From a virus (Duplodnaviria > Caudoviricetes): DNA of 64,000 bases. Of the stretch, positions 1 through 44,015 are shown piece by piece. The stretch is taken from positions 1-64,000 of the IMG/VR virus record IMGVR_UViG_3300027838_000002. The stretch is one strand, 5' to 3'. The stretch's first letter is position 1. Each line of letters begins with the position of its first letter. The position numbers were made by a program, and so were the translations under genes. The notes under the pieces were generated by a model. It was not told the origin of the DNA, ran no database searches, and saw only the letters and a list, made by a program, of their open reading frames with translations.

Positions 1-84
1 GGGCTCATCAACGGGTTCGTCAACGGGCTCATCAACGGGTTCGTCAACGGGTTCGTCAACGGGTTCGTCAACGGGTTCGTCAAC
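1..84. repeat. 12-bp tandem repeat GGG(T/C)TC(G/A)TCAAC x7, coding VDEP on minus strand
   Basis: read directly; variation only at synonymous positions. Confidence 0.9.
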
Positions 85-234
85 GATCCCGCCATTGGTC
101 CATTCCCAGCCACAGCCAGGTTGAAGAATACGGCGAGGCTTTTTGGCCTCTTCCACCGCCGCCGCTGCCTGCCGCTCACGTTCTTCAGCGTGAGCATTTT
201 GAGACGCGCTCAGGTTACTGTCGTTATGTGCCAT
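1..234 (-). CDS. hypothetical protein with VDEP tetrapeptide repeats (runs off window start)
   Basis: ATG at 234 with AAGGA SD; MAHNDSNLSASQ...GGI-VDEP-VDEP...; frame open to base 1; not in ORF track. Confidence 0.7.
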   Translation of the reverse strand, partial: MAHNDSNLSASQNAHAEERERQAAAAVEEAKKPRRILQPGCGWEWTNGGIVDEPVDEPVDEPVDEPVDEPVDEPVDEP

Positions 235-307
235 CAGTCGAATCCTTTCGTGTATGTGGAACAATACGTAGCTTATCAATTTTCATGGGTGGCGGCACCC
301 CGAAAGA

Positions 308-20445: not shown

Positions 20446-20452
20446 GATATCC

Positions 20453-20734
20453 TCAGTTAATGTCAACGTTCTGCGCCTCGGCCATGGCTGTGATCCGTGC
20501 GTCATTCACGGCTTCTCGAACTTCGTGGTCAATGACGGCGGCACGGAGGATCTTCACTATGGTTTCCCTAAAATGCTCCGTCTGCGGCTGCGGATTGGGA
20601 ACCTCAGACTCTTCGCCCGTCGCCTCGTCGACCTCCATAATGGTGGCTTCCCATCCGTGGCAGTGGCAAAACGCGGTGTAAACACGATCAACCTGCTCAT
20701 CGGGAACTTCAATCTCTAGTGTTATCGTCGCCAT
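20453..20734 (-). CDS. hypothetical protein
   Basis: AGGAG SD. Confidence 0.65.
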   Translation of the reverse strand: MATITLEIEVPDEQVDRVYTAFCHCHGWEATIMEVDEATGEESEVPNPQPQTEHFRETIVKILRAAVIDHEVREAVNDARITAMAEAQNVDIN

Positions 20735-22372: not shown

Positions 22373-22561
22373 TCAAGATGCTTTTCTCTTCACCTTTCTG
22401 AGTTGATGCGCCTTGCGCATACGGTCCTCAGCGTTATCAGGCACATCACGCGGCTCACCGGTGAATATGTCGCAGTTGCCGTCTGCGCGCTCTCCATAGA
22501 GCAATATCCGGTCGTCGCGGGTTGGATCCTCCGGCAGTGATGGAGCTTTGCTAGTAGCCAT
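22373..22561 (-). CDS. hypothetical protein
   Basis: MATSKAP start coupled to polA stop. Confidence 0.55.
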   Translation of the reverse strand: MATSKAPSLPEDPTRDDRILLYGERADGNCDIFTGEPRDVPDNAEDRMRKAHQLRKVKRKAS

Positions 22562-25500
22562 CACTCTTCCTCCTCTATGAACTGCGCCACCTCGGCCGGA
22601 CTCAGGGTCTGACCCCAGTAACGACATACATCTACATCAGTGGATAGGTAGTACGGACCTGGTTGCCCTTCCTGCCAAAGCGTGCCATCGATGTCATTCG
22701 GATATACCGGGACATCTTCGGTCATGCACTTGGGCAATACGACTTCACACACTTCCTGCATGTGCCGATACGGCACTTCAAGAAGGACGGCATCATGAAT
22801 CTGCAACACGATCCGGTAATCAACATCATGGTGCTTGCGATACTCGTAGAGATTGTGCAGCGCAAGACTCATTGCGTCAGCCACAAGGGACTGAATCGGG
22901 AAGTTCTGCGCCTGCCGTTCTGCCTCGCCGACCTTGGAACGGAGATCCGGAGAAATCTCATAGAAGCGCCTGTACCGCCCAAAGGCATTACGCAACCACC
23001 TCTGATCCGTGGCACGCTCGCGGCATTTGGATAAGAATCCTTCGACGCCGGGATATGTCTCAAAGTAATTGTTGATCAGTAGCTGCGCTTCAGATTCGAC
23101 GATATCCACGCCCTCTTCACGACACTGCCGCGCGATTGCAGCTGCGCCACGTCCGTATGGTATCCCGAAGTTCACGTTCTTCGCCGCAACCCGCATACCG
23201 GAAACCCCAGCATCCTTGAGTCCGCTCTTGGTTGGCAGGCAGTCCAGGCGAAACGCACGGACTGCTGCCTGGGAATGGATGTCATAGTGGTCGTCATGGA
23301 CCTCAGGAAGCATGTTCCTGCGTACATGTTCGATGCCAGTGGGGTCATCAGCCAACCACATGATCGCAGCCAGTTCGGCTCCCGTATAATCAGCCTCCAC
23401 CAGCAAGTGACCAGGACTGGCCGCAAAGATACTCCGGATTGGATACTCGTACCGCTCACCTATGATGCGGCGGTAATCGTCTTCACGCCGTTTGCTTATG
23501 TTCTGAAGATTGGGGCGTGCCGAAGACGCTCGCCCAGTCTCCAAGATCTGCATCAGGTGCGTGTGGATACGCCCGTCGCTGCTGACGTGGGACAGAAGAC
23601 CCTGCTTGTAAATCTTGTCCCCATCATCGTCGAGCTCGGGCAAACCTTGCTCGTCCACCACGGAATGTCGCAAGGTGGTTTTCAATACCTGGTCCAAGAA
23701 CCGAATGTCCCGGATCTGCGCAGCAATCGGATGCTGCTGGCCCAGGATACCCAAGGTCTCACGGTTGGTTGATGGGGTGTGCAGGTGCTCCTCGTTCCGG
23801 GTACAAATGTCGTCCCAGCTCTGTGGACGTGCGCCCGTGCTAGTGATGGGCTGCAGATTGAGCGTCACAACGCCGTCAGGGCGCATCAACTGCTGCGTGC
23901 CGTCGGGTAACATCTTGAACGCGTGCCGATCTCCGAACAGGACAGCGCGACAATGATGCGATGACGCAGGATTGAACTCAGCCCACCCAAGCTCTGCCCG
24001 CAACGACTCCACTTCACGAGATTTTGCTTCACTGAACAACCTGATCAAGTGCTCTGCCCGTTCCATGTCTACGAGCAGCCCACTTTGCTCCATCTCAAGG
24101 AAAGCCAGCGATGCCTTGTGACTAGTGGCATAAGCATCTCTGCAGTCATTACCGAACTCATCAGAGTTCAGCTCCTCGTCGAAGACGGAGTACAGGCGCC
24201 TGGTGACGTCTGCGTCGTAGTTAGCGTACGGATGCAAAACCTCTGCAGGACACTCACCGTATCCCTCCATGTCCTTGGCGGTTATCCCATTCTGTTTACA
24301 GTAATCAGTCTTCCACTGCTCCAGCTCCGTGTCGTACCGAGGACACCCAGTACGTCGAACAGCCTGCTCTTCCAGTTTGAACCTGGTTGTCTCGTGTAGT
24401 GCGTGGCACATCAACGATGTGTCAAAGCCATCAGCATATTGCTCACGTAGATCCAGCCCCAGCTTGTGTCTGAGCCATGGGAGATCCGACCTGAAGAAAT
24501 GACCACCGACCTTCACGCCAGGTCGAGCAAACAAGCGGCTGAGCTGACGTGCCGCGGCATCAATTGACGGCACAAAGGCTGATTCCCCGCCTGCATGATT
24601 CAGCACGACACACACGGCAAACTTTGACCGGTGTGACCACTGAACGGTACGCAAGTAGGAGTTGGGCTCCCACGGGTAATCACCATGCCACTCGGCATCG
24701 ACCGCGATCACGTCACCACTCGGGTCAGCTAACGCTTCATCCACGAGACGAGCTAGCTCGCGCTCCTTGTACACAACGTGATGCTCGATATCATCTTCGG
24801 CGAAACCAATCGGCTGCCCGTGCGCCAGTGAGTAAAATTGCCTGATCGTGCCCAGCAGTTCATCGTACCTTTCAGGAGTGTGATGCACGGCAGCAGGGTG
24901 TACCGCGGTCATGACACGCGCAGTGTGGTGTTCCGGTGTTGCGCCCAGCTCGTGGGTTGGGAACTCATAGTCCATCACCCGCCCCTTCATGGCCTCGACG
25001 CCGTACCCGCGCCCAAGCAGGCACTTACTCGCTTCGCTGCCAAGACACAGGATGTAATCTGGACGTGTCAGTCGCAGCTCCTGCTGCAGAATGATCTCAC
25101 AGTTTTTAACCCACGCAGCAGGCAGTGCCCCGCTGCTGGCCCGCGGACTGACATGGCGTACCACGTTAGTCATGTACCACTCGGAAGCTTCTGATTCAGG
25201 TATTCCTGCTTCACCAACAGCCTTGTAGAGCGGCTCACTGATGGGGCCAACGAAGTTACGCCTGCCCGTGGGCCAGCTGATTGCATTAACGCTCGGCTGC
25301 TTACCGATAACCATCACCTTCGGGTAGTGCTCTGAGAGCGCCACCGGCCCGCTCGCCTCCTGCCCCCATGGATGCCCCACTACAAAATCAACAACGTGCT
25401 GCTGACCCTTGTGCGACACCGTCAGCGCGAACTGACTGTCATACAGCGCCCGCCAGTACAGGTATTTCAGGTATTTGCCCGGGTTCGTGATACTACGTTC

Positions 25501-25695
25501 ACTGACCCGTCCTTTTGTGTACGCAGGCTCGGGATCTCCGAGACTCTGCGATGCAGCAATAAAGTCAGGACCAGGGAGCGGCATCCCAGGGCTGTTTAAC
25601 GCGTACAATGGGTATTCGTCAAAAAGCCCGTCGACGTCGTCGGCCAACAGCAGTTGCCGAAACTCCGCGTCCAACATGGGAAACGTCGGTTGCAT
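22561..25695 (-). CDS. polA: family A DNA polymerase with N-terminal uracil-DNA-glycosylase-like domain and 3'-5' exonuclease
   Basis: UDG: VIGKQP..FVGP..TNVV..HPAAV; Exo: VDAEW, YANYDAD; Pol motifs A EADYTGAEL, B RVAAKNVNFGIPYG, C QIHDAV. Confidence 0.95.
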   Translation of the reverse strand: MQPTFPMLDAEFRQLLLADDVDGLFDEYPLYALNSPGMPLPGPDFIAASQSLGDPEPAYTKGRVSERSITNPGKYLKYLYWRALYDSQFALTVSHKGQQHVVDFVVGHPWGQEASGPVALSEHYPKVMVIGKQPSVNAISWPTGRRNFVGPISEPLYKAVGEAGIPESEASEWYMTNVVRHVSPRASSGALPAAWVKNCEIILQQELRLTRPDYILCLGSEASKCLLGRGYGVEAMKGRVMDYEFPTHELGATPEHHTARVMTAVHPAAVHHTPERYDELLGTIRQFYSLAHGQPIGFAEDDIEHHVVYKERELARLVDEALADPSGDVIAVDAEWHGDYPWEPNSYLRTVQWSHRSKFAVCVVLNHAGGESAFVPSIDAAARQLSRLFARPGVKVGGHFFRSDLPWLRHKLGLDLREQYADGFDTSLMCHALHETTRFKLEEQAVRRTGCPRYDTELEQWKTDYCKQNGITAKDMEGYGECPAEVLHPYANYDADVTRRLYSVFDEELNSDEFGNDCRDAYATSHKASLAFLEMEQSGLLVDMERAEHLIRLFSEAKSREVESLRAELGWAEFNPASSHHCRAVLFGDRHAFKMLPDGTQQLMRPDGVVTLNLQPITSTGARPQSWDDICTRNEEHLHTPSTNRETLGILGQQHPIAAQIRDIRFLDQVLKTTLRHSVVDEQGLPELDDDGDKIYKQGLLSHVSSDGRIHTHLMQILETGRASSARPNLQNISKRREDDYRRIIGERYEYPIRSIFAASPGHLLVEADYTGAELAAIMWLADDPTGIEHVRRNMLPEVHDDHYDIHSQAAVRAFRLDCLPTKSGLKDAGVSGMRVAAKNVNFGIPYGRGAAAIARQCREEGVDIVESEAQLLINNYFETYPGVEGFLSKCRERATDQRWLRNAFGRYRRFYEISPDLRSKVGEAERQAQNFPIQSLVADAMSLALHNLYEYRKHHDVDYRIVLQIHDAVLLEVPYRHMQEVCEVVLPKCMTEDVPVYPNDIDGTLWQEGQPGPYYLSTDVDVCRYWGQTLSPAEVAQFIEEEE

Positions 25696-26773
25696 TTGCC
25701 TCTACTCGAAGTTGTACTCCACGCTCGCGCGCTGAGTTGTGAATAATTTCCCAAAGGGTATCTCGGTCAAAATCTGCGGGGTCTTTACCCGCCGGAAGTT
25801 GTACCGGCACGACACCACCAGACATGACGGGCAATAACCGCGCGGTAACGGCATCAATCTCTTTAGATGCATCGCCATCGAACATGATCACGGCGACACC
25901 ACCCGACCAGGTTTCCGCCATCAACCGGGCTTGCATCTCATGCAAACTCTTCCCAAAAACAGCCACGGCCTGCGGACCAACTGACCATACGTCTGTAGCA
26001 CCCTCGACCAGCACAACGGGGTAATGCCGTGACGCAACATCGTAGTTGTACAGAATCCGTCGCTTGGGCATCTTTGGTCGCGTGTAGTACTTGGGTATGC
26101 CGGTGTAGTTCCAGTTGGCATCCCCGATGTACCTACACTGCCAGCCTACCAGCTCGCCGTGCAGATGCACCGGCGCCACTATCCGGTTGGTAGCGGTGGG
26201 GTATTCAGGCCGCGCCACCTCGCAGTACGAGATATTGAAAACGCTATCCAGCTCGTTGATGTCGTAACCACGCTCCTCCAGATAAAGGATCGCGGCGTGC
26301 TGGCTCGGCAGATCACGCAGACGTATCACTGACCCGGGAGGGTCTACTGCAGACAGCGAAATGGGCACCTCTTCGCCACCGGCGTGCACCATGGTATCCC
26401 GCCGACGTCTCCAGTTGATTCCGCGATACACCATGTTCTCGAACTGGTGCCTGCGCGCAGCGGAACTGATGCAGCCCTCGTTGTAACAAATGGCGAGATG
26501 CAGATTCTTACTCCGTTGGACCTCATCGTATACGCCGAATCGATGATTCACCCAAAGACGATGCCGCGCGTCATTGCAGAAGGGGCAACACACGCGGTAG
26601 TACTCACCGTAAGCTACGGCTGGTGCGTTACGCTCTCCTTCTCGAATGCTCATGGAGCGCAACGAGGGAATGTAGGCCTCTCCCTGATTGGCAACCATTA
26701 CCAACCCGAACTCTCGCGTTAACCTCTCGTAGAGAGTTGGGTTTAACGGCTTCACCGTGCTGTCCATCATCAA
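25619..26773 (-). CDS. dnaG: DnaG-type primase
   Basis: CCPFC Zn finger, TOPRIM VLVEGATD, MFDGDA, KDPAD. Confidence 0.9.
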   Translation of the reverse strand: MMMDSTVKPLNPTLYERLTREFGLVMVANQGEAYIPSLRSMSIREGERNAPAVAYGEYYRVCCPFCNDARHRLWVNHRFGVYDEVQRSKNLHLAICYNEGCISSAARRHQFENMVYRGINWRRRRDTMVHAGGEEVPISLSAVDPPGSVIRLRDLPSQHAAILYLEERGYDINELDSVFNISYCEVARPEYPTATNRIVAPVHLHGELVGWQCRYIGDANWNYTGIPKYYTRPKMPKRRILYNYDVASRHYPVVLVEGATDVWSVGPQAVAVFGKSLHEMQARLMAETWSGGVAVIMFDGDASKEIDAVTARLLPVMSGGVVPVQLPAGKDPADFDRDTLWEIIHNSARERGVQLRVEANATDVSHVGRGVSATAVGRRRRRAF

Positions 26774-28443
26774 ATCCCATGAAAGTCCGTTCCATCTGTT
26801 GAGTACTGACGATAACTCCGTACCTGACCTTGTGCGGGGGCGTCGGTAGTGCCCTGAAAACGATCCGCAACTTCCTTTGCCAGAATGGAACCAGTCTGCT
26901 TATCCACTCTGTGTGTAGCCTCTGCCGACACAATTTTCACCATGTCACCAGCTATCCTGAGCAGCATAGGTGGCTGCGGGTCACCCGCTCGCCGCCGCTT
27001 GGTGACCTGCATCCGCAGACAGTGATTTACCGGGTCACGATTTCCAAAGCACACACAGAACGATAAGTACATCGCGAACGACTTGGACTCACTAGCTTGC
27101 GAATGATGTAACAGCTTAGCGGGGGACTTCTCGTTAGCCTCGCCAGAGAACTGATGCATAACCCATACCGGAATATCGTACTTCTCGGCGATCTTACGCT
27201 TGATCTCATCGGGAAACATGGTGACCAGGTGCCGCAGGTTAGTAACATCACCGAGGCTGTCCCCGATGCGCCGCATGCACGCGGCATACACGTAATCCAC
27301 GACGACTAACGCCGGTCTTGAATCTGTCTCTCGACCGTCACGGGCCACCGCTGCCACAATCTCTTCCACGAATCCAGAGCCGATATCACCAGGTTGCCCG
27401 CCTTGCTGACAAAAGTCCACAATACGCATGCACTTATTGAGCATAGGGCGTGCGTCCACGTATCGCTCGTACTCGCCCTTGGGCTCCGGGTCCGCCATAC
27501 GTTCTTCTCTCGTACGATTCGCAAATCGTTCTTCTTCGTACGGCTTGTAGTCACCACGTCGACTCAGGTCGGTTTCCGGATCAGTCATGTTCTTGACAGT
27601 GTCGAGAGCAATACTCGCCGCGCAAGAAAGCATACGCTGGCGGATATACTCCTCAGTCTGCTCATAGCTGACCAAATAAACCTGCCGGGGTGATCTCCCC
27701 TCTTCTGCCGCTATCATCATCTCACTCTTCATTGCCTCGACGCAGAGATGTATAGCTAACGTGGTTTTACCGCTGCCTAGCGGAGCAATCACACCATTCA
27801 CTTCTCCCGGCGCGTGACCCCCATCCATGTACCGATCCAGGAATTCGAGCCCCGTGGTAAACGATCGCGTTGGTTTTGGTGTCCAGTCGTCCGGTATACC
27901 GGCTTTGACTGGGTTATGTGACACACTGCCGATCTTATTCAGCTGATCGGAAATTGGCTGAAGCAACCCCATCAAGTTTGATGGAGTACCACTGATGTGT
28001 GTGAATATCTTTCGTAACTCATCCGCCACCGTACGCTCTTCCATAAACTGGCGCAGCAGCTGTCGTCCGGTGTCCAGATCAAGCTTACCAGGGACCACCC
28101 GCTCGAACGTCCAGTACAACATGCCAGGGTCGCTGGGATCCTCGCGCATGATGTTTTCGTACTCTTCACCGGACAGGCCTTCGGGATCGTCGTTGATCAA
28201 CTTATCGACCACATCGACCATGGATGTATACGACAATTCACCACCACGTTCATGGAGCATAATTGCTGCGCGCCAGATCGCCGCGAACCCTAGCTCCTGG
28301 GTACTGAAGTGTTCTGGCTTGAGCAGCTTGGCCGCCTCCTGAAAAAGGATTGGATTCGTCAAGATCCGCACCATCAATGATTCCAGCATCCGTGGATTAA
28401 CGCGACCCTGCACGTAGCCTGGGTCCAGTCTTTGCTTGTCCAT
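26770..28443 (-). CDS. dnaB: DnaB-like replicative helicase
   Basis: APLGSGKTT Walker A, VSYE, VVVDY, IPVWVMHQ. Confidence 0.9.
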   Translation of the reverse strand: MDKQRLDPGYVQGRVNPRMLESLMVRILTNPILFQEAAKLLKPEHFSTQELGFAAIWRAAIMLHERGGELSYTSMVDVVDKLINDDPEGLSGEEYENIMREDPSDPGMLYWTFERVVPGKLDLDTGRQLLRQFMEERTVADELRKIFTHISGTPSNLMGLLQPISDQLNKIGSVSHNPVKAGIPDDWTPKPTRSFTTGLEFLDRYMDGGHAPGEVNGVIAPLGSGKTTLAIHLCVEAMKSEMMIAAEEGRSPRQVYLVSYEQTEEYIRQRMLSCAASIALDTVKNMTDPETDLSRRGDYKPYEEERFANRTREERMADPEPKGEYERYVDARPMLNKCMRIVDFCQQGGQPGDIGSGFVEEIVAAVARDGRETDSRPALVVVDYVYAACMRRIGDSLGDVTNLRHLVTMFPDEIKRKIAEKYDIPVWVMHQFSGEANEKSPAKLLHHSQASESKSFAMYLSFCVCFGNRDPVNHCLRMQVTKRRRAGDPQPPMLLRIAGDMVKIVSAEATHRVDKQTGSILAKEVADRFQGTTDAPAQGQVRSYRQYSTDGTDFHGI

Positions 28444-29214: not shown

Positions 29215-29525
29215 CCACGCTCACTCGCTTCCCTGAAAGCCTCGATGAAGTTCTCTGATGTAAGCCCCTCAGTTGGAGCGACCTCAGTCTCTTCAAAATC
29301 CTCGACGTCGAGTTCACACCAACAATGGTCCGCCGCAGGGTGCGGGAAATTACTTTGATCCGCCCCCGGATGACCCAGGCTTACATCAGCAGGACAAAAG
29401 TAGGCTTCATCATCCAGGTAATCAGCGATATCTTCGAAGCTGACGTCTCCTTCGACGACTACTTCGGCGTACGATTTCCAGTTATCCGCATCTCTGTACA
29501 TGTATGAGACATTGGTGTTAGACAT
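29178..29525 (-). CDS. hypothetical acidic protein
   Basis: YMYRDADNWK motif. Confidence 0.65.
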   Translation of the reverse strand: MSNTNVSYMYRDADNWKSYAEVVVEGDVSFEDIADYLDDEAYFCPADVSLGHPGADQSNFPHPAADHCWCELDVEDFEETEVAPTEGLTSENFIEAFREASERGWPSQFGAESYV

Positions 29526-31041
29526 CTGCTACCTCCTGCGCCGAAAGCTTAATCTGCACCCATCCCTTCTTGGCATAGTTGCGATAACGCTTCTGGCTCT
29601 TGTTCTTGAGCGTACGATCAAAGTTATCCATGCAGTCGACTACTATGCCTTTCTGCTTACCTGACTCCTCGTGAATACGCGCCACACGTCCCGGCGCTTG
29701 GGTATCAAGGATTTCACTACCCCGGGCGTCCGCCCTAACCAGCACAGCCAACTGCTCAAAACTCACGCCAGTCGACCACACATCCGTAGCAATCACTTTC
29801 TTATACAGCTTGTCTTCGAACCCCATTCGAAGCTCTTCTCGTCGATCAGGGGTGACAGGCTCGTAATCCTCTGGAAGCATTCCGTTACGTTGGTAGCGCT
29901 CGATATCTTCTGCTTCGATGCTGGCGTAGCAAAGCTCATACTCCGGCAGCTCCTGCCAGAGATAGATCGCATGCTCTATGGTTTCCACCAATATCAGCAC
30001 TTGGTCGTCATCAGCGTAGGAGCGTACGGCGGAGGCGATTAACGCATTCCGATTCGCGTTTCTCCATATCCCATGACGCTTTTTAGGCACTCCCTCCATT
30101 CCGGCGCACGGTGATGCACCCTGAACCGGCAGCCAGATGACTTGGATGGGAACGACAAGACCAAGCTCAGTAGCTTCAGCCCACGACATCTCAAAGATTT
30201 TCGGTCCGAACAGGTATTCCAGCTTGGCATCAGATCCGTCTGCACGGCCTTCGGGCGTAGCTGTCAGGCCGTAATTTCTGCTCAGCGTATACATCTTAGA
30301 GATGGCTGCAGAGTGTTTCGGGCTCATCAGCTCATGGACCTCGTCCGCCAGCAGGATGTCACAATCACCGCTGCTGTGGTGTAACGAGTCCGCCGTGAAC
30401 ACGGTAACACGTGCCTCTTCCCGTTTGCCGCCGCCGACTTGCCCGACGCTGGGAAGAAACCGCCTCAACGCCCGCACGGTACGCTGAACGACATCCTTCC
30501 GCCTGGTCACGATATGAATCTTGGCCTTCGGGAAAAGCAGGCCCACCATCGCCATCAGGTGAGATTTACCGAACGCCGGTGGGGCGTCGATGATCCCATA
30601 TTCGTTCTCCACTATAGCTCGCAAGCACTCTTCCTGGCGTGCACGGAACTCGATGTTCCTGCGTACGTTGTCCCAGTCTTCCTCGAACGCGTTTACGCGA
30701 GGGCTTGGGGGCGTGTAGTCGACAAAATCGATGGTGTACCCGGCCGCGCCCAAGATCGACTGAATTTTCTGCAAGTAGCCGCAGCAGGTAACGATCTTGT
30801 TGTCACGGATACGATACAACTTCGTACGCGTTTGCTTCGTCGTATGACGCTGCCCTGTAACCTCGTCACGTTGTGCGTATCCGTACAGGAACTGTACGTA
30901 CGTATACGTCATCGCTGGACGTAGCAGCGAAAAAACGTGCGATTCCTCGACGGCGCTTCCGTCGGAGTACGACACCTCTAGCATTGTGCCGTACTTGCGA
31001 ACCAGTACATCTTGTGTCACGGCATTTAAACTCCACCCCAT
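29518..31041 (-). CDS. SF2 DEAD/H helicase (UvsW-like)
   Basis: APPAFGKS, DEVH, GLTATP, QAPGRVAR. Confidence 0.9.
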   Translation of the reverse strand: MGWSLNAVTQDVLVRKYGTMLEVSYSDGSAVEESHVFSLLRPAMTYTYVQFLYGYAQRDEVTGQRHTTKQTRTKLYRIRDNKIVTCCGYLQKIQSILGAAGYTIDFVDYTPPSPRVNAFEEDWDNVRRNIEFRARQEECLRAIVENEYGIIDAPPAFGKSHLMAMVGLLFPKAKIHIVTRRKDVVQRTVRALRRFLPSVGQVGGGKREEARVTVFTADSLHHSSGDCDILLADEVHELMSPKHSAAISKMYTLSRNYGLTATPEGRADGSDAKLEYLFGPKIFEMSWAEATELGLVVPIQVIWLPVQGASPCAGMEGVPKKRHGIWRNANRNALIASAVRSYADDDQVLILVETIEHAIYLWQELPEYELCYASIEAEDIERYQRNGMLPEDYEPVTPDRREELRMGFEDKLYKKVIATDVWSTGVSFEQLAVLVRADARGSEILDTQAPGRVARIHEESGKQKGIVVDCMDNFDRTLKNKSQKRYRNYAKKGWVQIKLSAQEVADV

Positions 31042-31067
31042 ATTGTGCTTACTGGGGTGGAATTGAC

Positions 31068-31096
31068 TTGCCAGGCTCGCAAATAGCGCTTACAGT
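31068..31096 (+). promoter_or_regulatory. sigma70-type promoter for candidate sRNA
   Basis: TTGCCA-17 nt-TACAGT. Confidence 0.5.
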
Positions 31097-31102
31097 AAGC
31101 GT

Positions 31103-31185
31103 GTGCCTGCACAACCGTCCTCCCAGTGGCAAAATGTAGGGACAACCGAAAGCCTGCCGTTTACCCACGGCAGGCTTTCTCTTTT
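31103..31185 (+). ncRNA. candidate small RNA (~80 nt)
   Basis: between promoter and terminator; two ACAACCG copies 31 nt apart. Confidence 0.4.
31148..31185 (+). terminator. intrinsic terminator (possibly bidirectional)
   Basis: GAAAGCCTGCCGT-TTACCC-ACGGCAGGCTTTC-TCTTTT. Confidence 0.8.
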
Positions 31186-31198
31186 ACATCTACGTATT

Positions 31199-31720
31199 TT
31201 ACGTCGACTCGACTGGTGACTTACGCACAGTCGTTGGATCTATTGACCGCCTACGCGGCCGAACCTCTTCCACGCGAAACGTACCGTAGCCCTCGTCCGG
31301 CTTGAACGACGAGATACCCTTGTACGTCCCCGCGACATCCATCAGCTGCCACAAGTCATCCATACTCAACCCATCAGGGAGCACGCAGTTCACCCCGATG
31401 GTGTCGCCAGATAAAAACGCCTCATGGAGGGCGTATCTGGGACGCGCCTCCGGCTTATTTTCCGGCGCCGGGAAATACCGACGCCATTTTTTAGGGACAC
31501 CGTCGACGACGGGATCCCATCGAATCCTCTTCACAGCAGACTGGTGACGGCTCAAAACCTTGGCCGCGTATCGTATGATACCCGCCCACCAGGTTGGCAG
31601 AAACAGCACTCTGCCCTCGGGGTCGCGCCGCATTGCGAGAATGTGGTTCTTCCCATCAGCCCGTTTGACATCACCCGGGCAAGGCTGGTTGAACTGAATT
31701 CTCACCGTCACTTCTTGCAT
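31199..31720 (-). CDS. stand-alone Cas7/Csm3-like RAMP-fold protein
   Basis: VTVRIQFNQPCPG; RDPEGRVLFLPTWWAGIIR; HEAFLSGDTI; G-rich loop GISSFKPDEGYGTF. Confidence 0.6.
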   Translation of the reverse strand: MQEVTVRIQFNQPCPGDVKRADGKNHILAMRRDPEGRVLFLPTWWAGIIRYAAKVLSRHQSAVKRIRWDPVVDGVPKKWRRYFPAPENKPEARPRYALHEAFLSGDTIGVNCVLPDGLSMDDLWQLMDVAGTYKGISSFKPDEGYGTFRVEEVRPRRRSIDPTTVRKSPVEST

Positions 31721-31777
31721 CCCACCGACCCCTTGCGGGTACGAAGCATCCTACCGGTCATCCAAACGAATGTCGAG

Positions 31778-32719
31778 TCAGTGCTTCTCGGAAAGCATGT
31801 GTTTCTTGAAAGCACCAATCTCGGACTCAGACTTGAAGAAATACTCGGGGACAAAAAGACCGTCACCCCCGTGATACAGCGAGTCCAACCACGTGTGCCG
31901 CAAAAATCGCAGAAAGGTCTGCGCGGCACGTAATTGCCCCTTTATCGGATCGGTCGTGGCATGTTTTGCCCATACGCGATACACGAAATTGCCCGGCGCC
32001 TGCAAACTAGGGTCTGACTGCATCACCGACTCCATGCAACGGTGCCAGCAATCCATCACAATACGACAGCGCGGATTAAACTGACGCGACTTATAGGAAT
32101 GCGCTGCGCCCGAATATGCCATCCGCACATTGTGCACTGTCAATCCGAGGTATGCTTCCAATCGAGCTGTGCGCTCCGGATGATGCTGATCGATGTACCA
32201 GCGCGGATCACGAATAACAGCAATGAGACGAGCACACGCATGCTGCTCGCTCGACGCAAACGATAGCGCTGGCCAGACAGGGTGATTATGCAAAATTTGC
32301 AAAGATTGGTCTGAGACCTCTCCTCGCCGCTCCTGCACGGCCAACATGTAGGACGGATAGTCATGCGCGCCGAACTGGTGCCACCCACCCAGGCTAGACG
32401 CAAGCATGAAACGCCGAGATCTCACGAGCACAACTTCCGGGTCAGCGCGCTCCGATGCTGAATGACACAGCAGCGGGGTACATATATACAACCGAAAGTT
32501 GGGGTCGTGGTGCTTCTTCAGATAAACCTCAAGGATTAACTCGGTGTTATCTGGGGTCGCCACGACATGGAACAAGGAAGACTGCTGGATGCGCGGTGAC
32601 TGCATAAATTCACGCAGATCACTACCACTACACACCGGCAACTCTTGCCCATCCAGATACCATATGATCCCATCCGTATCTGAATGCAATTTAAGGCTGA
32701 CGTCTAGCGGATTATGCAC
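31778..32719 (-). CDS. divergent Nop/IS110-C-terminal-like protein
   Basis: HPVWPALSF..ACARLIAVIRDPRWY..RLEAYLGL and LRAAQTFLRFLRHTW match the Transposase_20/Nop helix pattern; no DEDD. Confidence 0.5.
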   Translation of the reverse strand: MHNPLDVSLKLHSDTDGIIWYLDGQELPVCSGSDLREFMQSPRIQQSSLFHVVATPDNTELILEVYLKKHHDPNFRLYICTPLLCHSASERADPEVVLVRSRRFMLASSLGGWHQFGAHDYPSYMLAVQERRGEVSDQSLQILHNHPVWPALSFASSEQHACARLIAVIRDPRWYIDQHHPERTARLEAYLGLTVHNVRMAYSGAAHSYKSRQFNPRCRIVMDCWHRCMESVMQSDPSLQAPGNFVYRVWAKHATTDPIKGQLRAAQTFLRFLRHTWLDSLYHGGDGLFVPEYFFKSESEIGAFKKHMLSEKH

Positions 32720-32730: not shown

Positions 32731-34911
32731 CTACAGTTGCACTACGTTATCAAATAGATGGCCTAGTGAATTTTCATGCGTAATCAGTACACACTGCAAA
32801 CCACGTGACCCTGACAAATCTCGTAGCTTGCCCAACGCAACCGACAAGCAACCAAGATTGTCGTCGTCCAGGTAAGCCGTCGGCTCATCCAGACACAACA
32901 AGCTGAGATCGTTTGCAAACATCGAATTCACTGCGATCCGGAACGCCAACGCCAACACGACCTTTTGACCGCCCGACAGACGCGTCGCCGGTTGAATTCG
33001 CCCATCCTCAAACAGAACTTCAAAGCCCATGCCCTCGATAGCGCGAATTTGGTAATCGGTATCAAATAGGGTAAGCAATTCGTTGGTATCTGTCTCCAGC
33101 AATTCCAGGTAGTTCTGCGCGACGATTCGCGGCAGATTGTCCCGGTGTAGCAGCGTACGCACGGATTCCAGGTGTGTGTAGAACACGTCCTCATGCGCCA
33201 GGCTCGCAGCCGCCTCCTGGGCCTGGGTTAACTGGCTTCGACGACGAGTCACAACCTCGGTGGCGATGGCGGCGTTGTTGGCCGCCTCGATGCGTCGGTA
33301 GTGCTGGCTACGATTATGCGCACATCGCTCCTCTGCCTCCTGGACCTCGTCTTGCGTCATCCGCGCGTGCTCATCACGCTTACGGGTAATTGCCTCGATC
33401 TCGATGAGAAGATCTTCCATTATGCGCTGGGTGTAACCCCTGACTCCAACAGCCTTATCATATTCTCCGGTAAAACTGGCTGCCAGGATAACCTGCTGAT
33501 CGTACTCGTCGACGAAAGTCATATTCTCGGATATCTTGTGATGATCGAGGAGTTCGCCGCCTGGCTCAGGTAGCTGGCCATACTCTTCCTGATCCCGGTT
33601 TGTGGCCTTCTCCCACGAACTTCTCCAGCCGTTCCAACGCACCAGCGCCAGCCTATGCTCGGTGGCGTCGTCAATCTTCTTCTCGAAATCGGCTAGCTCA
33701 TTAGATATTTCACCGAGGCGTGTACGTAACTCATCCGCATCCACGTCGATATCGTCCACGTGCGTGCCGCACGTAGGGCATTCAGCCTTGTGATGCGCGG
33801 ACTCCGGGTCAGCGAAATACGCCAGAAGATGATCACACTTTCGCTGCTCTATCTTAAGTTCGTCGATGACAGACAGCGCATCAGGGGAAGACAGCTCATC
33901 AAGTGGCACCCAGCCTTCAGGAGGAGTCGGCTCAGGGTTAGCTTCCTCTTCCAGGCAGGCAGTATTTATACGCTGCTGAAGACGCTGCCGTTTATCGTGC
34001 TCTGCCCGCAACGACGTCTGCGCGGCCAATACCTCTTTTGTTTCCTCGCACGTCTTTCTGCCCTCATCCACAAGACAGACGTAATTATCACGATCTTGCC
34101 GCGCACGCGCACAAACTTCCGCCAACCCCAGCAACTCCACTTCGTAACCCTGCAGTTTCTCGTGTTTCCCACCAGCTTCAACGTCATAACGCGTCCACTG
34201 ATTGTGTGACGTAATGCGTATCCGGTCAGGATCCTCAGCATCAATGTAGTCACCGGAAATGCCAGGAAATTGGGTTGCCAGTATGATGTCGCAATTGCCC
34301 AGATCACGCTCAGACTCCGCTAGCTCGGACTGTAGGTGGTCCAAGTTAGGAAGAAGCACATGCGATCTGCGTTGCTCGATCAAGAACGAGCCCACCGCCT
34401 CCCAGCACTTCTCTGCCTGCGAGACGCCGAAAAGCTTTTGAAATGACCGCGCACGCTCTGCAGGCTTTGCGGCCAGGGGAGCAAATATCTCACCCTGTTC
34501 CACAAAGACGTACTGATTGAGCATCTGCGTCGACACGCCGAGCAAGTCGGCAACAGCAGCACTCGCTGCTTTGTCGCCGCGAATCTTGTCGGCGTGGGAG
34601 TAGCTATGGTCAAGCTGAAAATACGACTGCTTGCCACGGAGACCACGTTGAACCGTGGCTGTAGTACCGTTGTGCTCAAACTTCAGCTTGACGTAAGACG
34701 GCTCATCGTCATCAGCAAACTGGCAGATGTTCTCGACCTTCTTACCATTGGTACGACTGAAGTCACCGGTTAACGCGCCAAGCGCAGACACCAACAGGTT
34801 TGATTTTCCAGAACCGTTATGCCCAAGAAAGGCGTTGAGCCGGTTATGAAATTCAACCTCCTTGTGCCTGTGCTGACAAAAGTTGTGAACCTCCAGGCTC
34901 AGCAATTTCAT
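32731..34911 (-). CDS. sbcC: SbcC/Rad50 (gp46-like) ATPase
   Basis: GHNGSGKS, coiled coil with CPTCG hook, LSGGQ, LDEPT, ITH. Confidence 0.95.
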   Translation of the reverse strand: MKLLSLEVHNFCQHRHKEVEFHNRLNAFLGHNGSGKSNLLVSALGALTGDFSRTNGKKVENICQFADDDEPSYVKLKFEHNGTTATVQRGLRGKQSYFQLDHSYSHADKIRGDKAASAAVADLLGVSTQMLNQYVFVEQGEIFAPLAAKPAERARSFQKLFGVSQAEKCWEAVGSFLIEQRRSHVLLPNLDHLQSELAESERDLGNCDIILATQFPGISGDYIDAEDPDRIRITSHNQWTRYDVEAGGKHEKLQGYEVELLGLAEVCARARQDRDNYVCLVDEGRKTCEETKEVLAAQTSLRAEHDKRQRLQQRINTACLEEEANPEPTPPEGWVPLDELSSPDALSVIDELKIEQRKCDHLLAYFADPESAHHKAECPTCGTHVDDIDVDADELRTRLGEISNELADFEKKIDDATEHRLALVRWNGWRSSWEKATNRDQEEYGQLPEPGGELLDHHKISENMTFVDEYDQQVILAASFTGEYDKAVGVRGYTQRIMEDLLIEIEAITRKRDEHARMTQDEVQEAEERCAHNRSQHYRRIEAANNAAIATEVVTRRRSQLTQAQEAAASLAHEDVFYTHLESVRTLLHRDNLPRIVAQNYLELLETDTNELLTLFDTDYQIRAIEGMGFEVLFEDGRIQPATRLSGGQKVVLALAFRIAVNSMFANDLSLLCLDEPTAYLDDDNLGCLSVALGKLRDLSGSRGLQCVLITHENSLGHLFDNVVQL

Positions 34912-35393
34912 GCGCTGTTACCTCCCAAGTTCATGGCCCTCCCATACGATTTACCATGAGCACCAACTCCAACAGTTGCTGGCATGACAGTGTGCTCCAG
35001 ATTGTACATCACATAGCAGTAATTTCTGAGAAACACCTCGCGATCGTAATCGCTAGTCATCATCAGGATTAATTTCTCCGCCGTGATCAGGGTCACGCGT
35101 GCATAGTACAACCCGTCGTAATACACATGAGAATTACGAATAGGAATAGACGCGGCTACCGGTCGATCCATACTTAACACTGACCGTAAATCTTCTGCGC
35201 TCAATGCACGCGCCAGATAGACTTTCTCACTCGTTGTAAACTTCTCTCTGTAAGAGAGACTTGCCACCAGCGACCCTGTTTCAAAGCTGATTTCTCCCCA
35301 GGGACCAAGTACGATACCAGTATTATCAAGAGTATGATCGTCATCCGAGTCAGTCGGACGCTGTTTGGGTTTCCTCAGCAGCAGGTACTGCAT
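34908..35393 (-). CDS. hypothetical protein
   Basis: ORF between sbcD and sbcC. Confidence 0.55.
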   Translation of the reverse strand: MQYLLLRKPKQRPTDSDDDHTLDNTGIVLGPWGEISFETGSLVASLSYREKFTTSEKVYLARALSAEDLRSVLSMDRPVAASIPIRNSHVYYDGLYYARVTLITAEKLILMMTSDYDREVFLRNYCYVMYNLEHTVMPATVGVGAHGKSYGRAMNLGGNSA

Positions 35394-36537
35394 TCATATG
35401 TTCCCTACGCATTTTGACAAGAAGTTCCCGCAGATCCGTAATACCGGAGCTAGACAGTAGCCGCATCGCTGTCTGGTATTCTGCTGAATCAGGGTCCGCC
35501 ACCAAACCTAGTGCCCCGGCGAGTCCCTGATCAATAACATCACGACGTGCTTGATCTTCAACTTCTGGCGAGTCTTGCTCAACCGATACCGGGCTCGTAA
35601 ACAAGTACGCTTGGTCGCCGACCGTGGCGCGAATGCGGTTGTAGACGTCTGGAATAGTGTCCAAGTACGACACTCGGAGCAACGGCTTCGCGATAACCGC
35701 TGGAAGTGAATCCAGACGCTCGCCCTGGTTTACCAGCACGGACAACTCGTGGAGATCATCCTCGTGCTCAATAGCGACCTCATCGAAATGTCGAGTTTCC
35801 AGATTGTGATGCGACATAGAATGGCCTGGCTCGGACGAAATGTCGCCGTCGCGGAAATGGTAGAAGCACTTGTTGGACGGCTCGGAGATTGACCGCATGC
35901 TAATCGAGCCGGGGGAGTACATAGTGAGCTCATCGACATCCGGACCGGCCGGATAACACGCCTCCGTGTGCTCATGGAAATCGCCGGTCAACACATGCTT
36001 AATCTGCGGCGCACGTACTAACAGCATGCTGAGCTCACACTCAGAGGGTATCCACCCTCCCATGAACTCCGACCAAACCTGGTGAGCCACCAGCACCGAG
36101 GCCTCGTCAGGAATGTTGTCGAAGGCTTCCTCGATGTGTTCTTTGGGCGTCCAATCAAGCCCGTAGAACGTTGCGCCGTCGATCTCGAACGTCTGCCCAT
36201 GCACATGCGTGGGCCACGGATGCACACGCATCCACTCAGGTCGCCCATGATCTTCTCCAAGGTTACGTCGCACGCGCTCGTGCTGGCCCTGGATGAAGTA
36301 GACAGGTAGTCCGTCTTCCTGCATCCTGTCCATCTCCCGGCACATCACGTTGACGCTCACGGGATCCGGATCAGGCTTATCGAAAAGGTCGCCACCTGCG
36401 ATCAACGGCAGCTCGTTCTCGATACAGTAATCAACAATCTGCGCCAAACTGTGGTAGGAATCACCAACCATGGTTGGATACTTCACCCACGTCGTGTAGC
36501 TCAGATGCCAGTCAGCACTAAAAACGAAACCTGCGAT
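35350..36537 (-). CDS. sbcD: SbcD/Mre11 (gp47-like) nuclease; probable ATC start
   Basis: ADWHL (upstream of track start), GGDLFD, QGQHE, AHQ, GDFH, YSPGS. Confidence 0.9.
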   Translation of the reverse strand: MAGFVFSADWHLSYTTWVKYPTMVGDSYHSLAQIVDYCIENELPLIAGGDLFDKPDPDPVSVNVMCREMDRMQEDGLPVYFIQGQHERVRRNLGEDHGRPEWMRVHPWPTHVHGQTFEIDGATFYGLDWTPKEHIEEAFDNIPDEASVLVAHQVWSEFMGGWIPSECELSMLLVRAPQIKHVLTGDFHEHTEACYPAGPDVDELTMYSPGSISMRSISEPSNKCFYHFRDGDISSEPGHSMSHHNLETRHFDEVAIEHEDDLHELSVLVNQGERLDSLPAVIAKPLLRVSYLDTIPDVYNRIRATVGDQAYLFTSPVSVEQDSPEVEDQARRDVIDQGLAGALGLVADPDSAEYQTAMRLLSSSGITDLRELLVKMRREHMNAVPAAEETQTASD

Positions 36538-36969: not shown

Positions 36970-37164
36970 ATGGGACGACTTGTGCTGACTCGTCGACCTA
37001 ACCAAGCTATTCTGATCGACAACAAGACGACAGTCACTATCATTAGCTGCTCACGGGGCAAAGTACGGCTAGGTATCGACGCGCCGCCCAGCGTCCATGT
37101 GGTCAGAGACGACGCACACAAAGGTGCCCCTGACCACGAAGACAAATCAGTTAAGCAAGCCTGA
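36970..37164 (+). CDS. csrA: CsrA/RsmA translational regulator
   Basis: LVLTRR..I.I..VRLGIDAP..VVR; AAGGAG SD. Confidence 0.9.
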   Translation: MGRLVLTRRPNQAILIDNKTTVTIISCSRGKVRLGIDAPPSVHVVRDDAHKGAPDHEDKSVKQA

Positions 37165-38607
37165 CACCGTTGACGTAGTGCTGTAATCGTCGAGCTCGTC
37201 CACGAGCAACACCTCTCCGTCATGCTGGCGCACGAACTCTGCGCCTGGAATGGCCCCATAAGCATTACTGCTGCCTTTAACCAGCGCGTCCGGCTGGATC
37301 TCTCGGATCAGAGCCTCGGGCGTGTCTTCGTCGAACCAGGTCACAACGTCGACGAACGGAAGCTGCGCAATCGTTTTTGCGCGCAGCTCCAGCGACTGAA
37401 ACGGACGGTCGTCCCCTTTGCCACGCTTGGCGGACGCGTCCGTATTCAGCGCGACTACAAAGTAAGGCCTGTCCAGCAGTCGGCTAGCCTCACGTAGCAG
37501 GTGCATGTGACCCTTGTGCAACAGGTCAAAATGCCCGTTCGTGAACGCGATACTGGCGTCCCTATTACGATGGACAGCCGCTCTGCGGATAGCTTCGCCT
37601 GGCGCACAGATCTTGTCCTCGATCAAACCCGCAGCTAGCTCTTCTTGAGTTACAGGATCCATCCCACGTTTCCTCACGAAAAGGCCAGCGGCAACATTTG
37701 CGTGGTTCACGTCGTCAGTTACTGCGTACGTCGCAGTAACCACATCACCAGCGCCGGAGACATCAACCACAGCTCTCGTATCTGCAATAGCAGGGATTTC
37801 ACCGAACTTATTGATGACGTGCGCCACTCCAGCGGAACCACACGTACAGATAATCTGCTTCCAGTTATAGGCAGACATCATCTGTTTGCATGCGTGAAAA
37901 ATCTCCTGCCGATCGCCATAGAGCTGATACAGCTCAGACTCATTAATCACAACACAATCCGCCCCAATGAATGCCTTGGCATTCGCGGGCTTTGGCGCTG
38001 CGATGATGCGATATTCGTTATTTCTGGCGATAAACTCCGCCGTGGCGGCATGATCTGCGAAGGCACCGCCGTCATAGTCCACCAGAATCACGGTATCGAC
38101 GCCTGGCTTACTGTTGCCTTCAGCTCCATACAGATCATCTATGACAGACTGCGCCGCGTTCAACAGTCCGTCCTGTAACAACTCTACCTGCTCCGGCAGC
38201 TCCCGCTCGCAGTCAAACCGGAACAGGTGCCGCCCGGTAGCAGCCTCAACGTAGCGCGTCTTGGTCGGCACCCTGAACTGCCTGTTAATACGGACTGGGG
38301 CGTACTCCAGACAGAAATCCCGGCCCTGCTGCTTAGCGTAGGCATCAATGCGCTTTTGAGCCTTGAGCGCAACAGCGCCCACCAAGCTCCCTGTGCCCGT
38401 CGGTGCAACCAGGATTGTATTGGCACCCAACATAGCAGCACTCACGGCCACCTGTCCGGCGCCGCCAGGAGTGTATTCATCGATATACGCGTCATCTTCG
38501 GTACTCCTGCCCACAAGGACGGGCGCTTCAGGGGCAAGACGGCCCACCGTACACTCGACGCGCCGGTCAAGTATCAGATCTCCGACCACAAGGATGCTCT
38601 TCGGCAC
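37147..38607 (-). CDS. hldE: bifunctional heptose-7-P kinase/heptose-1-P adenylyltransferase
   Basis: VVGDLILD..RLAPEAPV, DVSGAGD, FTNGHFDLLHKGH, KGDDRP, YSTT. Confidence 0.9.
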   Translation of the reverse strand: MPKSILVVGDLILDRRVECTVGRLAPEAPVLVGRSTEDDAYIDEYTPGGAGQVAVSAAMLGANTILVAPTGTGSLVGAVALKAQKRIDAYAKQQGRDFCLEYAPVRINRQFRVPTKTRYVEAATGRHLFRFDCERELPEQVELLQDGLLNAAQSVIDDLYGAEGNSKPGVDTVILVDYDGGAFADHAATAEFIARNNEYRIIAAPKPANAKAFIGADCVVINESELYQLYGDRQEIFHACKQMMSAYNWKQIICTCGSAGVAHVINKFGEIPAIADTRAVVDVSGAGDVVTATYAVTDDVNHANVAAGLFVRKRGMDPVTQEELAAGLIEDKICAPGEAIRRAAVHRNRDASIAFTNGHFDLLHKGHMHLLREASRLLDRPYFVVALNTDASAKRGKGDDRPFQSLELRAKTIAQLPFVDVVTWFDEDTPEALIREIQPDALVKGSSNAYGAIPGAEFVRQHDGEVLLVDELDDYSTTSTVSGLLN

Positions 38608-41421: not shown

Positions 41422-41458
41422 CACGCTCGCGGCATGGTACTCACGTATACCGTGGTTA
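41422..41458 (-). ncRNA. single TIGR-like unit fused to the tasA stop codon
   Basis: TAACCA-CGGTATAC-GTGAGTACCA-TGCCGCGA-GCGTG. Confidence 0.8.
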
Positions 41459-42742: not shown

Positions 42743-43023
42743 TTTGTGTTCTCTGTTTCGTCATGTTCTTGTTTTGGTAGGTACTCATTATCGAGGCAAC
42801 GCTTAAGCGCTACCTCTAATCGTCGGTTCTTACGCAACAACCACTTAACATCGAGAAACATAGTGCGCGAATCCAACTCAAAAACGGTTGGCGCTGCATA
42901 CCTCTCGCGTAATTTACTGACGAGAACATCATCAGAAATGTCGTCGTCTGGATAGCTAGGATCAATCACAGCTCTGTCTCCAACATTGCCATGCGCACAA
43001 TCGGCACACCGTAATCCAGCCAA
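42739..43023 (-). CDS. hypothetical protein
   Basis: ATGA-coupled to tasA; start uncertain. Confidence 0.45.
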   Translation of the reverse strand: MAGLRCADCAHGNVGDRAVIDPSYPDDDISDDVLVSKLRERYAAPTVFELDSRTMFLDVKWLLRKNRRLEVALKRCLDNEYLPKQEHDETENTK

Positions 43024-43715: not shown

Positions 43716-44015
43716 TTAGTTCCACTCAGGCGTCCCTTCGTCGGTCTTAAGCGCTGTGACAAGTTCTGATGGAAACGCTACAGGTTTCAAATCAGAATCC
43801 TGTACGGTCCAGCCCAGCGTCTGAAAGAGAATCTTGGTCTTTTCCCGAAACTCCGCAAAAGGCGACGGGATGCGCTCGATGAGCGTCTTATTCTCGTGAT
43901 CAATCTCGTATACACAGACTCCTTGCGGAGCTGCCCAAGTAGCACCCTGCTTGGTGGTACGAATTAACTGCTGCCCGAATTGGATATCCTCTTCATCGGG
44001 TGTCCAGTCTGGCAT
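43716..44015 (-). CDS. hypothetical protein
   Basis: operon-spaced ORF. Confidence 0.6.
   Translation of the reverse strand: MPDWTPDEEDIQFGQQLIRTTKQGATWAAPQGVCVYEIDHENKTLIERIPSPFAEFREKTKILFQTLGWTVQDSDLKPVAFPSELVTALKTDEGTPEWN

Follow-up and report, generated by a model that had tools for sequence, protein, structure and literature searches.

The Cas7-like gene and its family

We analysed a 64,000-nucleotide (nt) stretch of DNA, hereafter the window, from a virus of the Caudoviricetes (positions 1 to 64,000 of IMG/VR record IMGVR_UViG_3300027838_000002). Its minus strand carries a 173-amino-acid (aa) gene with an ATG start (31199..31720), the translated product of which is predicted to be a minimal, Csm3-like RAMP protein; it is called the Cas7-like gene below. 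Directly upstream on the same strand lies g313 (31778..32719), encoding a 313-aa TasR/IS110-like partner, as indicated by an AlphaFold2 model, by structural alignment with VIA-align and by weak matches to the NCBIfam profile NF052498. A spacer of 57 nt (31721..31777, minus strand) separates the stop codon of g313 from the start of the Cas7-like gene, and in relatives this spacer usually measures 1-10 nt. The two genes form a pair that is fixed in the replication-recombination module of a marine phage lineage with genomes of ~200 kb.

An original prediction, made from the letters of the window, had described this open reading frame (ORF) as a stand-alone Cas7/RAMP-like gene bearing a series of RAMP motifs. 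Both the ORF and all of the quoted motifs were indeed present upon ORF calling and translation: PCPG at residues 13-16, GRVLFLPTWWAGIIR at 36-50, E100-x4-G105, and GYGTF at 144-148. The ordered core of the protein comprises residues 1-156 and is followed, from about residue 157, by a basic, disordered C-terminal tail. In an alignment of 73 family members, G16, W45, H99, E100, P115, G131, G135, S137, G146 and F148 were invariant, F40, L41 and W44 were kept in at least 90% of the members, and D33 was conserved in 89% of the sequences. As a signature of the family, the quoted motifs stand for the most part, with the exception of P13 and P15, which are mostly replaced, and of G105, which is merely common. 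The conserved arginine, aromatic and histidine positions include R7, R9, R32, W44, W45, Y51 and W68 in the first part of the protein, and W79, R81, Y96, H99, Y133, Y145 and R158 in the second.

Of 111 candidates from a word-indexed search, 76 were relatives at E ≤ 1e-3, with 43-92% identity, and none of these carried a functional name or a Pfam domain. An exhaustive HMMER search over 1.84 billion representatives, clustered at 50% identity, returned 171 clusters at E ≤ 1e-3, including 142 at E ≤ 1e-10; these relatives are all unnamed, and viral wherever their source is known. Because of the 76 relatives and 171 representative clusters, the Cas7-like gene is, judging from its conservation, a real gene and no chance ORF. 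All of its relatives lie on uncultured contigs, and a tblastn search of 50,697 phage records with the protein gave no match, hence no cultured relative is known.

Predicted fold of the Cas7-like protein

The AlphaFold2 model, computed from the 73-sequence family alignment, reached a mean predicted local distance difference test (pLDDT) score of 91.9 and a predicted template modelling (pTM) score of 0.81, the five models ranging from 90.4 to 91.9 in pLDDT. Its topology comprises beta-1 (residues 2-10), a beta-hairpin (18-29), helix 1 (42-56), four strands between residues 67 and 114, helix 2 (120-133) and a last strand (148-155). A Foldseek search of the PDB with this model returned 156 chains at E ≤ 1e-3, and the best rows listed were nearly all type III Csm (Csm3) and type VII (Cas7) entries. 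When the model was aligned by VIA-align with 48,161 representative chains, 31 of them scored Z ≥ 8; every one of the best 36 rows was a CRISPR RAMP subunit, and the first unrelated, non-RAMP row appeared at Z 6.4. The best match was a Cmr-beta chain (Z 12.5, root-mean-square deviation 3.5, 151 residues aligned), and the same search matched a Csm3 crystal structure (Z 10.9), Cas7-11/gRAMP domains (Z of about 10), Csf2-containing type IV complexes (Z 9.2-9.6) and Cmr4 (Z 9.4). Cas6 chains reached just Z 5.9-6.8.

Among Foldseek's best 1000 chains, VIA-align placed 249 at Z ≥ 8, with named Csm3 crystal structures at Z 11.0-11.6 and type VII chains at Z 12.1 and 16-17% identity. About 150-156 residues of the model were aligned, and the corresponding chain ranges, near 4..205, cover nearly the entire target of ~200 aa; the fold tools return such ranges and no residue pairs. 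By its predicted structure, the 173-aa product is thus a minimal RAMP protein, the Cas7 fold of which is Csm3-like. The original prediction had staked its minimal Cas7/RAMP call on the predicted structure being an RRM/RAMP fold. The model came out as RAMP, with Z up to 12.5, and the call is correct at fold level, with Csm3, Cmr and type VII Cas7 as the best matches of Foldseek and VIA-align. In the databases of predicted structures, the Cas7-like protein had three BFVD matches at E ≤ 1e-3, one of them named RAMP superfamily protein, and the ESM Atlas returned unnamed viral clusters together with a sub-threshold RAMP lead at 0.77.

Predicted fold of the partner g313

The AlphaFold2 model of g313, built with 39 homologs from the fetched loci described below, had a pLDDT of 91.6 and a pTM of 0.90. 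Its N-terminal part is a RuvC/RNase H-like domain, and its C-terminal part a helical domain resembling Nop. Foldseek returned no match at E ≤ 1e-3, and its top rows were TIGR-TasR (E 0.03) and IS621. VIA-align matched the model with TIGR-TasR (9mty) at Z 10.9-11.0 (233 aligned residues, spanning positions 7..306 of the model), and TasR was the sole entry at Z ≥ 8 (one chain in the first search, two in the second). TasH followed at Z 7.9 over residues 121..308, which is the C-terminal Nop part, and the IS110-family recombinases ISCro4 and IS621 at Z 7.0-7.5, with 230-238 residues aligned and both domains covered. The remaining rows cover just the N-terminal RuvC/YqgF/RNase H-like domain.

At the sequence level, g313 matched the profile NF052498 (TIGR_Tas_endo) at E 0.013 and 15.5 bits, against a cut-off of 100. 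Weak matches to this profile (14-29 bits) recurred in 18 of 48 relatives' records, all 18 of them inside g313 homologs, at residues ~120-230; an hhalign comparison of g313 with the genuine Tas protein of the window, described below, found nothing. The adjacent protein had been called Nop-like beforehand, and this description is borne out by the TasR-like RuvC+Nop fold and by the recurrent weak matches to the Tas profile. In beta-1 of g313, no position has an acidic residue in over 64% of the 39 sequences. The conserved positions are H12 (90%, in beta-1), N58 and H114 (100% each), and position 120, which is always D or E. From this alignment, the canonical RuvC acidic set appears not to be conserved in g313, and its RuvC-like domain may be inactive or may use an unusual active site.

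The pair within the replication-recombination module

We fetched 48 viral loci with a relative of the Cas7-like gene. Many of these contigs are ~190-230 kb long, several have terminal repeats and are estimated to be 100% complete, and 13 are at least 90% complete. When they were searched by tblastn with the proteins of the window, the module genes shared order and orientation throughout: SbcD, SbcC, g313, the Cas7-like gene, the XPB-like helicase, DnaB, primase and PolA. In the window, the pair is preceded on the minus strand by an SbcD/Mre11-like phosphoesterase (35350..36486; Pfam Metallophos, PHROG 100) and an SbcC/Rad50-like ATPase (32731..34911; Pfam AAA_23 and SMC_N, PHROG 77). Downstream of it, on the same strand, lie an XPB/Rad25-like superfamily 2 (SF2) helicase (29518..31041; Pfam ResIII and Helicase_C, PHROG 16 DNA helicase), the sequence of which matches XPBII chains of the PDB at E 1e-14, and a DnaB-like replicative helicase (26770..28443; assigned from library matches and synteny). 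From DnaB, the module continues with a 384-aa DnaG-type primase (25619-26773) and with a PolA carrying an N-terminal domain of the uracil-DNA-glycosylase (UDG) superfamily (22561-25695, minus strand); a UvsX-like recombinase lies at 19060-20505. The surroundings of the pair are thus, as far as these annotations indicate, those of an ordinary replication-recombination module.

Among the 48 loci, g313 and the SF2 helicase were each detected in 47, SbcC, DnaB and primase in 46, PolA in 45 and SbcD in 43, and g313 adjoins the Cas7-like gene in 47 of the 48. The gap between the two genes, in these 47 loci, is at most 10 nt in 36 and at most 15 nt in 38; the genes overlap in two and are more than 100 nt apart in three. 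The reverse search, starting from g313, returned 56 viral loci and one contig of a metagenome-assembled genome, partly the same contigs as the 48. A hidden Markov model of the Cas7-like family matched downstream of g313 in 47 of these 57 loci; in the other ten, the helicase comes next, either directly or after small unrelated genes. Synteny in relatives had been proposed as a check of the original prediction, and both the pair and its replication-gene context are kept in 47 of 48 loci; the suggestion that the Cas7-like protein might partner the adjacent Nop-like protein is backed by this fixed adjacency and tight spacing.

Insertions of ~1-1.7 kb occur in a few loci, between the Cas7-like gene and the helicase in L017, L028, L036 and L037 (about 10500-11900) and between g313 and the Cas7-like gene in L093 and L094; a homing endonuclease would be our guess as to their content. 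One record, the 477-aa P0222 on a 3.2-kb contig, reads g313 straight into the Cas7-like protein. As a natural fusion it was rejected: its junction and its C-terminal end diverge as frame-shifts would, and it is probably an artefact of assembly or sequencing.

CRISPR and TIGR-Tas context

PADLOC found no cas family among 48 ORFs of the window, its sole match being one generic DEDDh exonuclease, and TRF found no CRISPR-like array over the window. The Cas7-like gene had been described as an orphan with no other cas gene or CRISPR array around it, which is correct on both counts.

The original prediction had missed five TIGR arrays and a genuine tas gene in the window. The latter (41456-42742, minus strand; 428 aa) scores 139 bits against NF052498, for a cut-off of 100; it also matches PHROG 4285, 'transposase', and has no Pfam match. 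Five TIGR dual-repeat arrays were found by TRF at approximately 8940-9236, 44996-45366, 55529-55714, 55803-55951 and 56571-56830. Their 37-nt unit consists of two conserved 10-nt repeats alternating with two variable 8-nt stretches, in the order, on the plus strand, of a 10-nt repeat beginning GGTTGCAC, 8 variable nt, a 10-nt repeat beginning TGGTAC, 8 variable nt and a T. The 8-mer core of the repeat occurs 29 times in the window, for 3.0 expected. In total, about 35 units are scattered across 48 kb and do not lie beside tas. A homing-endonuclease-like gene (HNH_3 and NUMOD4; 43964-44620) is found between tas and the nearest array. ORFs of 82-129 aa overlie the arrays at 44953-45342 (minus strand), 55642-55959 (plus strand) and 56575-56823 (minus strand), and are probably open frames made by the repeats, not genes.

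A tas gene above the cut-off was missing from every one of the 48 relatives' records, 13 of which are at least 90% complete, and the Tas protein of the window gave no tblastn match within 10 kb of the pair in any of the 48. Since these 48 records all lack tas, the gene has the look of a recent acquisition by this phage. From the Cas7-like gene, tas is ~10 kb away and the nearest TIGR array at least 13 kb. The pair is unrelated to the TIGR-Tas system of this phage and to any CRISPR-Cas system.

Between the Cas7-like gene and the helicase, the window has a 157-nt gap (31042-31198). It contains a GC-rich hairpin of 13 bp (31148-31179), followed on the plus strand by a T run, and a promoter-like site (31068-31096, plus strand). 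Around the pair, Rfam gave two sub-threshold matches, ar14 and sar, both upon this hairpin, and the RNA fold has a z of -2.96. A short antisense or plus-strand RNA or a bidirectional terminator in 31042-31198 would be specific to this phage, because most relatives have a short gap there. In a complete 195-kb relative (G004, locus L060), six clusters of tandem units of 88-97 nt, with a conserved head of ~40 nt and a variable tail rich in GC-ending pentamers, lie near the right end (~185600-189400); these may represent early promoters in repeated form, or an array of small RNAs.

Habitat, RNA libraries and other features of the window

The sequencing runs that contain DNA of this phage are labelled as marine or seawater metagenomes. 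In RNA libraries, contigs with a sequence identical to the window map to the Cas7-like gene (runs X16 and X17) and to g313 (runs X16 and X18); the contigs of four such runs cover short pieces of a 6.5-kb stretch, the uncovered parts of which are uninformative. On the minus strand, the window further encodes a fused PfkB kinase and cytidylyltransferase, resembling heptose-phosphate kinase/adenylyltransferase (37147-38607), and a dCMP deaminase (42966-43466). Taken together, the UDG-PolA protein, this fusion and the deaminase may point to modified DNA bases or sugars. The window opens with a 12-nt tandem repeat (8-85; 6.5 copies, 93% matches), also found by TRF.

Relationship to known systems

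By predicted fold, the Cas7-like protein is nearest to Csm3, Cmr4 and type VII Cas7, and g313 to TasR and IS110. The RRM-like palm fold of the Cas7-like protein matches that of the former throughout its ordered part (137-156 residues aligned). Its motif order also seems, by eye, to resemble that of Cmr4, with beta-1, a Gly, an Asp-bearing loop, the start of helix 1 and a C-terminal Gly-rich loop, G131, G135, G146 and F148 being invariant. Unlike these proteins, it is ~30-50 residues shorter and without detectable sequence similarity to them; its gene is accompanied by no cas neighbour, CRISPR array, Cas10, Cas5 or Cas11, and lies in a phage replication module beside a TasR-like gene. Type IV CRISPR-Cas, with Csf2 and DinG, offers another parallel, namely a mobile element on which the genes of a Cas7-type RAMP and of an SF2 helicase are neighbours. 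Here, however, there is no Csf1, Csf3, Cas6 or array, the helicase is XPB/Rad25-like and not DinG, and the context is one of replication.

Like TIGR-TasR and the IS110 bridge-RNA recombinases, g313 joins a RuvC-like N-terminal domain to a Nop-like C-terminal one, and both domains align. It differs from them in falling far below the Tas cut-off, in lacking the conserved beta-1 acidic residue, and in that neither a TIGR array nor a bridge-RNA-like element was found nearby. By contrast with IS110, the syntenic position of g313 is fixed, and it is therefore no mobile insertion sequence. By contrast with TIGR-TasR, it is coupled to a RAMP protein: the main texts of the TIGR-Tas Science paper (PMC12045711) and of the 2026 preprint on TIGR diversity (10.64898/2026.09.09.750476) contain 0 occurrences of RAMP or Cas7, and the former describes TasA as being without clear associations with other proteins. 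The same main text presents Nop5 as an inactive RuvC-like domain followed by a Nop domain, in which the dead domain recruits a partner enzyme (PMC12045711). The box C/D small nucleolar ribonucleoprotein (snoRNP; Nop5 with fibrillarin) thus resembles the pair in that g313 has a RuvC-like domain short of the usual acidic residue, a Nop-like domain and a tightly coupled small partner. This partner is, however, a RAMP protein and not a methyltransferase, and neither a K-turn RNA nor a protein like L7Ae was identified; the likeness is one of architecture only.

No pairing of this kind is described in the main text of the 2025 update of CRISPR classification (PMC12669027). A full-text literature search likewise returned no report of a Cas7-like/TasR-like pairing; its scope did not extend to TIGRSafari, which may list g313-like proteins. 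What we rate as new here is a member of the RAMP superfamily outside CRISPR, in a new partnership and a new context.

Proposed role of the pair

The reading that we favour, with belief and doubt in about equal parts, is that the Cas7-like protein serves as a single-stranded nucleic-acid-binding partner of the TasR-like protein in replication or recombination. Its RRM-like palm would bind a single strand of nucleic acid, RNA most probably, and the protein would constitute the small subunit of a complex with g313. Such a complex may recognise or hold an RNA-containing or branched intermediate of replication or recombination, candidate ligands being an R-loop, primer RNA or an as yet unseen guide, and would act alongside the XPB-like helicase and SbcCD. 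Nucleic-acid binding fits the protein because of its many conserved Arg, Trp and Tyr residues and its basic tail.

Several results weigh against this proposal. In the first place, the relationship of the 173-aa protein to Cas7 appears not to be detectable by sequence. None of the 73 family members matched the RAMPs family PF03787 at E ≤ 1, and Pfam as a whole returned no family for the protein itself at E ≤ 0.1. A local hhalign comparison of the family with an alignment of 38 genuine Cmr4 proteins gave a probability of 0.4% and an E of 0.16, and a profile search of the PDB with the family gave 0 matches. PADLOC and NCBIfam likewise gave 0 matches for the protein, and PHROGs just two insignificant ones (E 0.04-0.06). 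Membership in Cas7 is thus a matter of the predicted fold alone, and a fold shared with Cas7 does not show a shared function.

In the second place, the linkage between g313 and the Cas7-like gene is strong yet not obligatory. The ten g313 records without a Cas7-like gene downstream, three of which are at least 90% complete, held none anywhere along their whole length (0/10), and one complete genome (G047) has the Cas7-like gene without g313; the positive controls of both presence/absence searches passed (3/3 and 4/4). On a quick maximum-likelihood tree of 50 distinct g313 sequences, rooted at the midpoint, the presence of the Cas7-like gene needs four changes, at least two of them forced, and a single gain is not supported as such. 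Because L108 and L114, which lack it, branch within a well-supported group of carriers, the Cas7-like gene was, according to this tree, lost at least once while g313 stayed. Furthermore, no TIGR-like array or conserved non-coding element was found within 10 kb of the pair in the 48 relatives, nor any TIGR-like array anywhere in the complete relatives G004 and G023, in a TRF screen (period of at least 25 nt, at least 2.5 copies) that arrays of weak-repeat stem-loops could escape. Finally, the RNA-library contigs hint at transcription of the pair and may also stem from carried-over DNA.

An autonomous effector would make fuller use of both folds. In that case, the TasR-like and Cas7-like proteins would form a programmable, RNA-guided machine targeting DNA or RNA, with a guide encoded elsewhere in the phage genome, and would serve gene regulation, inter-phage competition or origin recognition instead of being a general accessory of replication. 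Both folds indeed stem from RNA-guided machines. The RuvC+Nop proteins TasR, IS110 and Nop5 are described as binders of guide RNA or snoRNA in the main text of PMC12045711, and catalytically dead TasR proteins as RNA-guided repressors in that of 10.64898/2026.09.09.750476, which the lack of a conserved beta-1 acidic residue in g313 would suit. We nevertheless consider this rather unlikely, given that no TIGR-like or other short-period array was found around the pair in the 48 relatives or at any place in the two complete ones, that g313 stands at 15.5 bits for a Tas cut-off of 100 with nothing found by hhalign against the Tas of the window, and that such fixity inside a core replication operon is rare for modules of defence or competition.

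The Cas7-like protein could instead be an RNA-processing endoribonuclease on a RAMP scaffold, like Cas6 or Csm3, cutting primer, R-loop or transcript RNA with H99, E100, S137, Y133 and D33 as candidate catalytic residues. The invariance of H99, E100 and S137 in the 73 sequences and the 89% conservation of D33 would suit a catalytic role, as would the Cas6 chains that also match the model. D33 moreover follows the beta-hairpin and precedes helix 1, an order that, by eye, also applies to the Asp of the Cmr4 motif GIVDLP, which we take to be the catalytic Asp of type III target-RNA cleavage. This equivalence, however, is one of by-eye order alone, the Cas6 matches fall far below those to Cas7, and the invariant residues may be structural or serve in binding; an enzymatic role is therefore improbable in our view.

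Equally improbable, we think, is a protein-protein adaptor, in which the RAMP fold would be a scaffold that binds no nucleic acid itself; such an adaptor might, for example, load the XPB-like helicase, or tether g313 or SbcCD to it. In 47 of 48 loci the gene separates g313 from the helicase, a position that would suit a tether; in its absence the helicase comes after g313, directly or with small unrelated genes in between, as if the Cas7-like gene were an optional add-on, lost at least once. Conserved Arg, Trp and Tyr residues in such number and a basic, disordered tail are, however, more typical of nucleic-acid binders, and the best 36 fold-search rows are all subunits of CRISPR RNA-guided complexes. 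A correspondence of g313 or of the Cas7-like protein to Bax1, the nuclease partner of archaeal XPB, was also considered; no Bax1 entry appeared among the best 50 fold-search rows listed for the g313 or the Cas7-like model, an absence that does not amount to exclusion.

The original prediction had also considered an anti-CRISPR decoy, that is, a Cas7 mimic poisoning the assembly of a host type III or VII effector. Phage-encoded Cas homologs can inhibit CRISPR, according to 10.1101/2023.06.24.545427, and like them the Cas7-like protein is a Cas-like protein in a phage without a CRISPR system; its fold is, moreover, nearest to type III and type VII Cas7. Unlike those inhibitors, it is encoded in a conserved core module with an obligate-looking neighbour and has no sequence similarity to cellular Cas7. 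A subunit mimic should resemble its target closely, whereas no similarity to real Cas7 sequences is detectable here. The position of the gene within the core replication module is fixed across distant phages (35-92% identity), it is tightly coupled to g313, and the family is wide (171 clusters); a decoy is thus a poor fit and very unlikely. Lastly, an accessory of this phage's own TIGR-Tas system, such as a processing or guide-holding factor for its five arrays, is suggested by the tas gene above the cut-off, by the arrays themselves and by the processing of stem-loop tigRNAs being described as open in the main text of 10.64898/2026.09.09.750476, but is close to refuted by the lack of such a tas in all 48 relatives and of such arrays in the two complete ones, by the distance of the Cas7-like gene from both, and by the silence on RAMP and Cas7 in that text and in that of PMC12045711.

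Significance of the pairing

Among the structures matched here, Cas7-type RAMPs occur solely as subunits of CRISPR effectors, and proteins of the TasR, IS110 and Nop5 types represent a separate lineage of RNA-guided machines. A more far-reaching form of our proposal, which we regard as quite unlikely, would make g313 and the Cas7-like protein a hybrid ribonucleoprotein core to giant-phage DNA replication, RNA-guided or RNA-holding, and marking origins, R-loops or recombination intermediates for the helicase and SbcCD. If true, a class 1 CRISPR RAMP would here be paired directly, for the first time, with the Nop/IS110/TIGR lineage. The fixed and close association of a Cas7-fold gene with a TasR-fold gene, among widespread marine phages of ~200 kb, suggests that a RAMP scaffold was recruited for replication or recombination, or that these phages have an undescribed RNA-dependent step. 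This pair of 313 and 173 aa could inform the evolution of CRISPR effector subunits and of Nop-domain guide binders, and could yield a compact new nucleic-acid-binding module.

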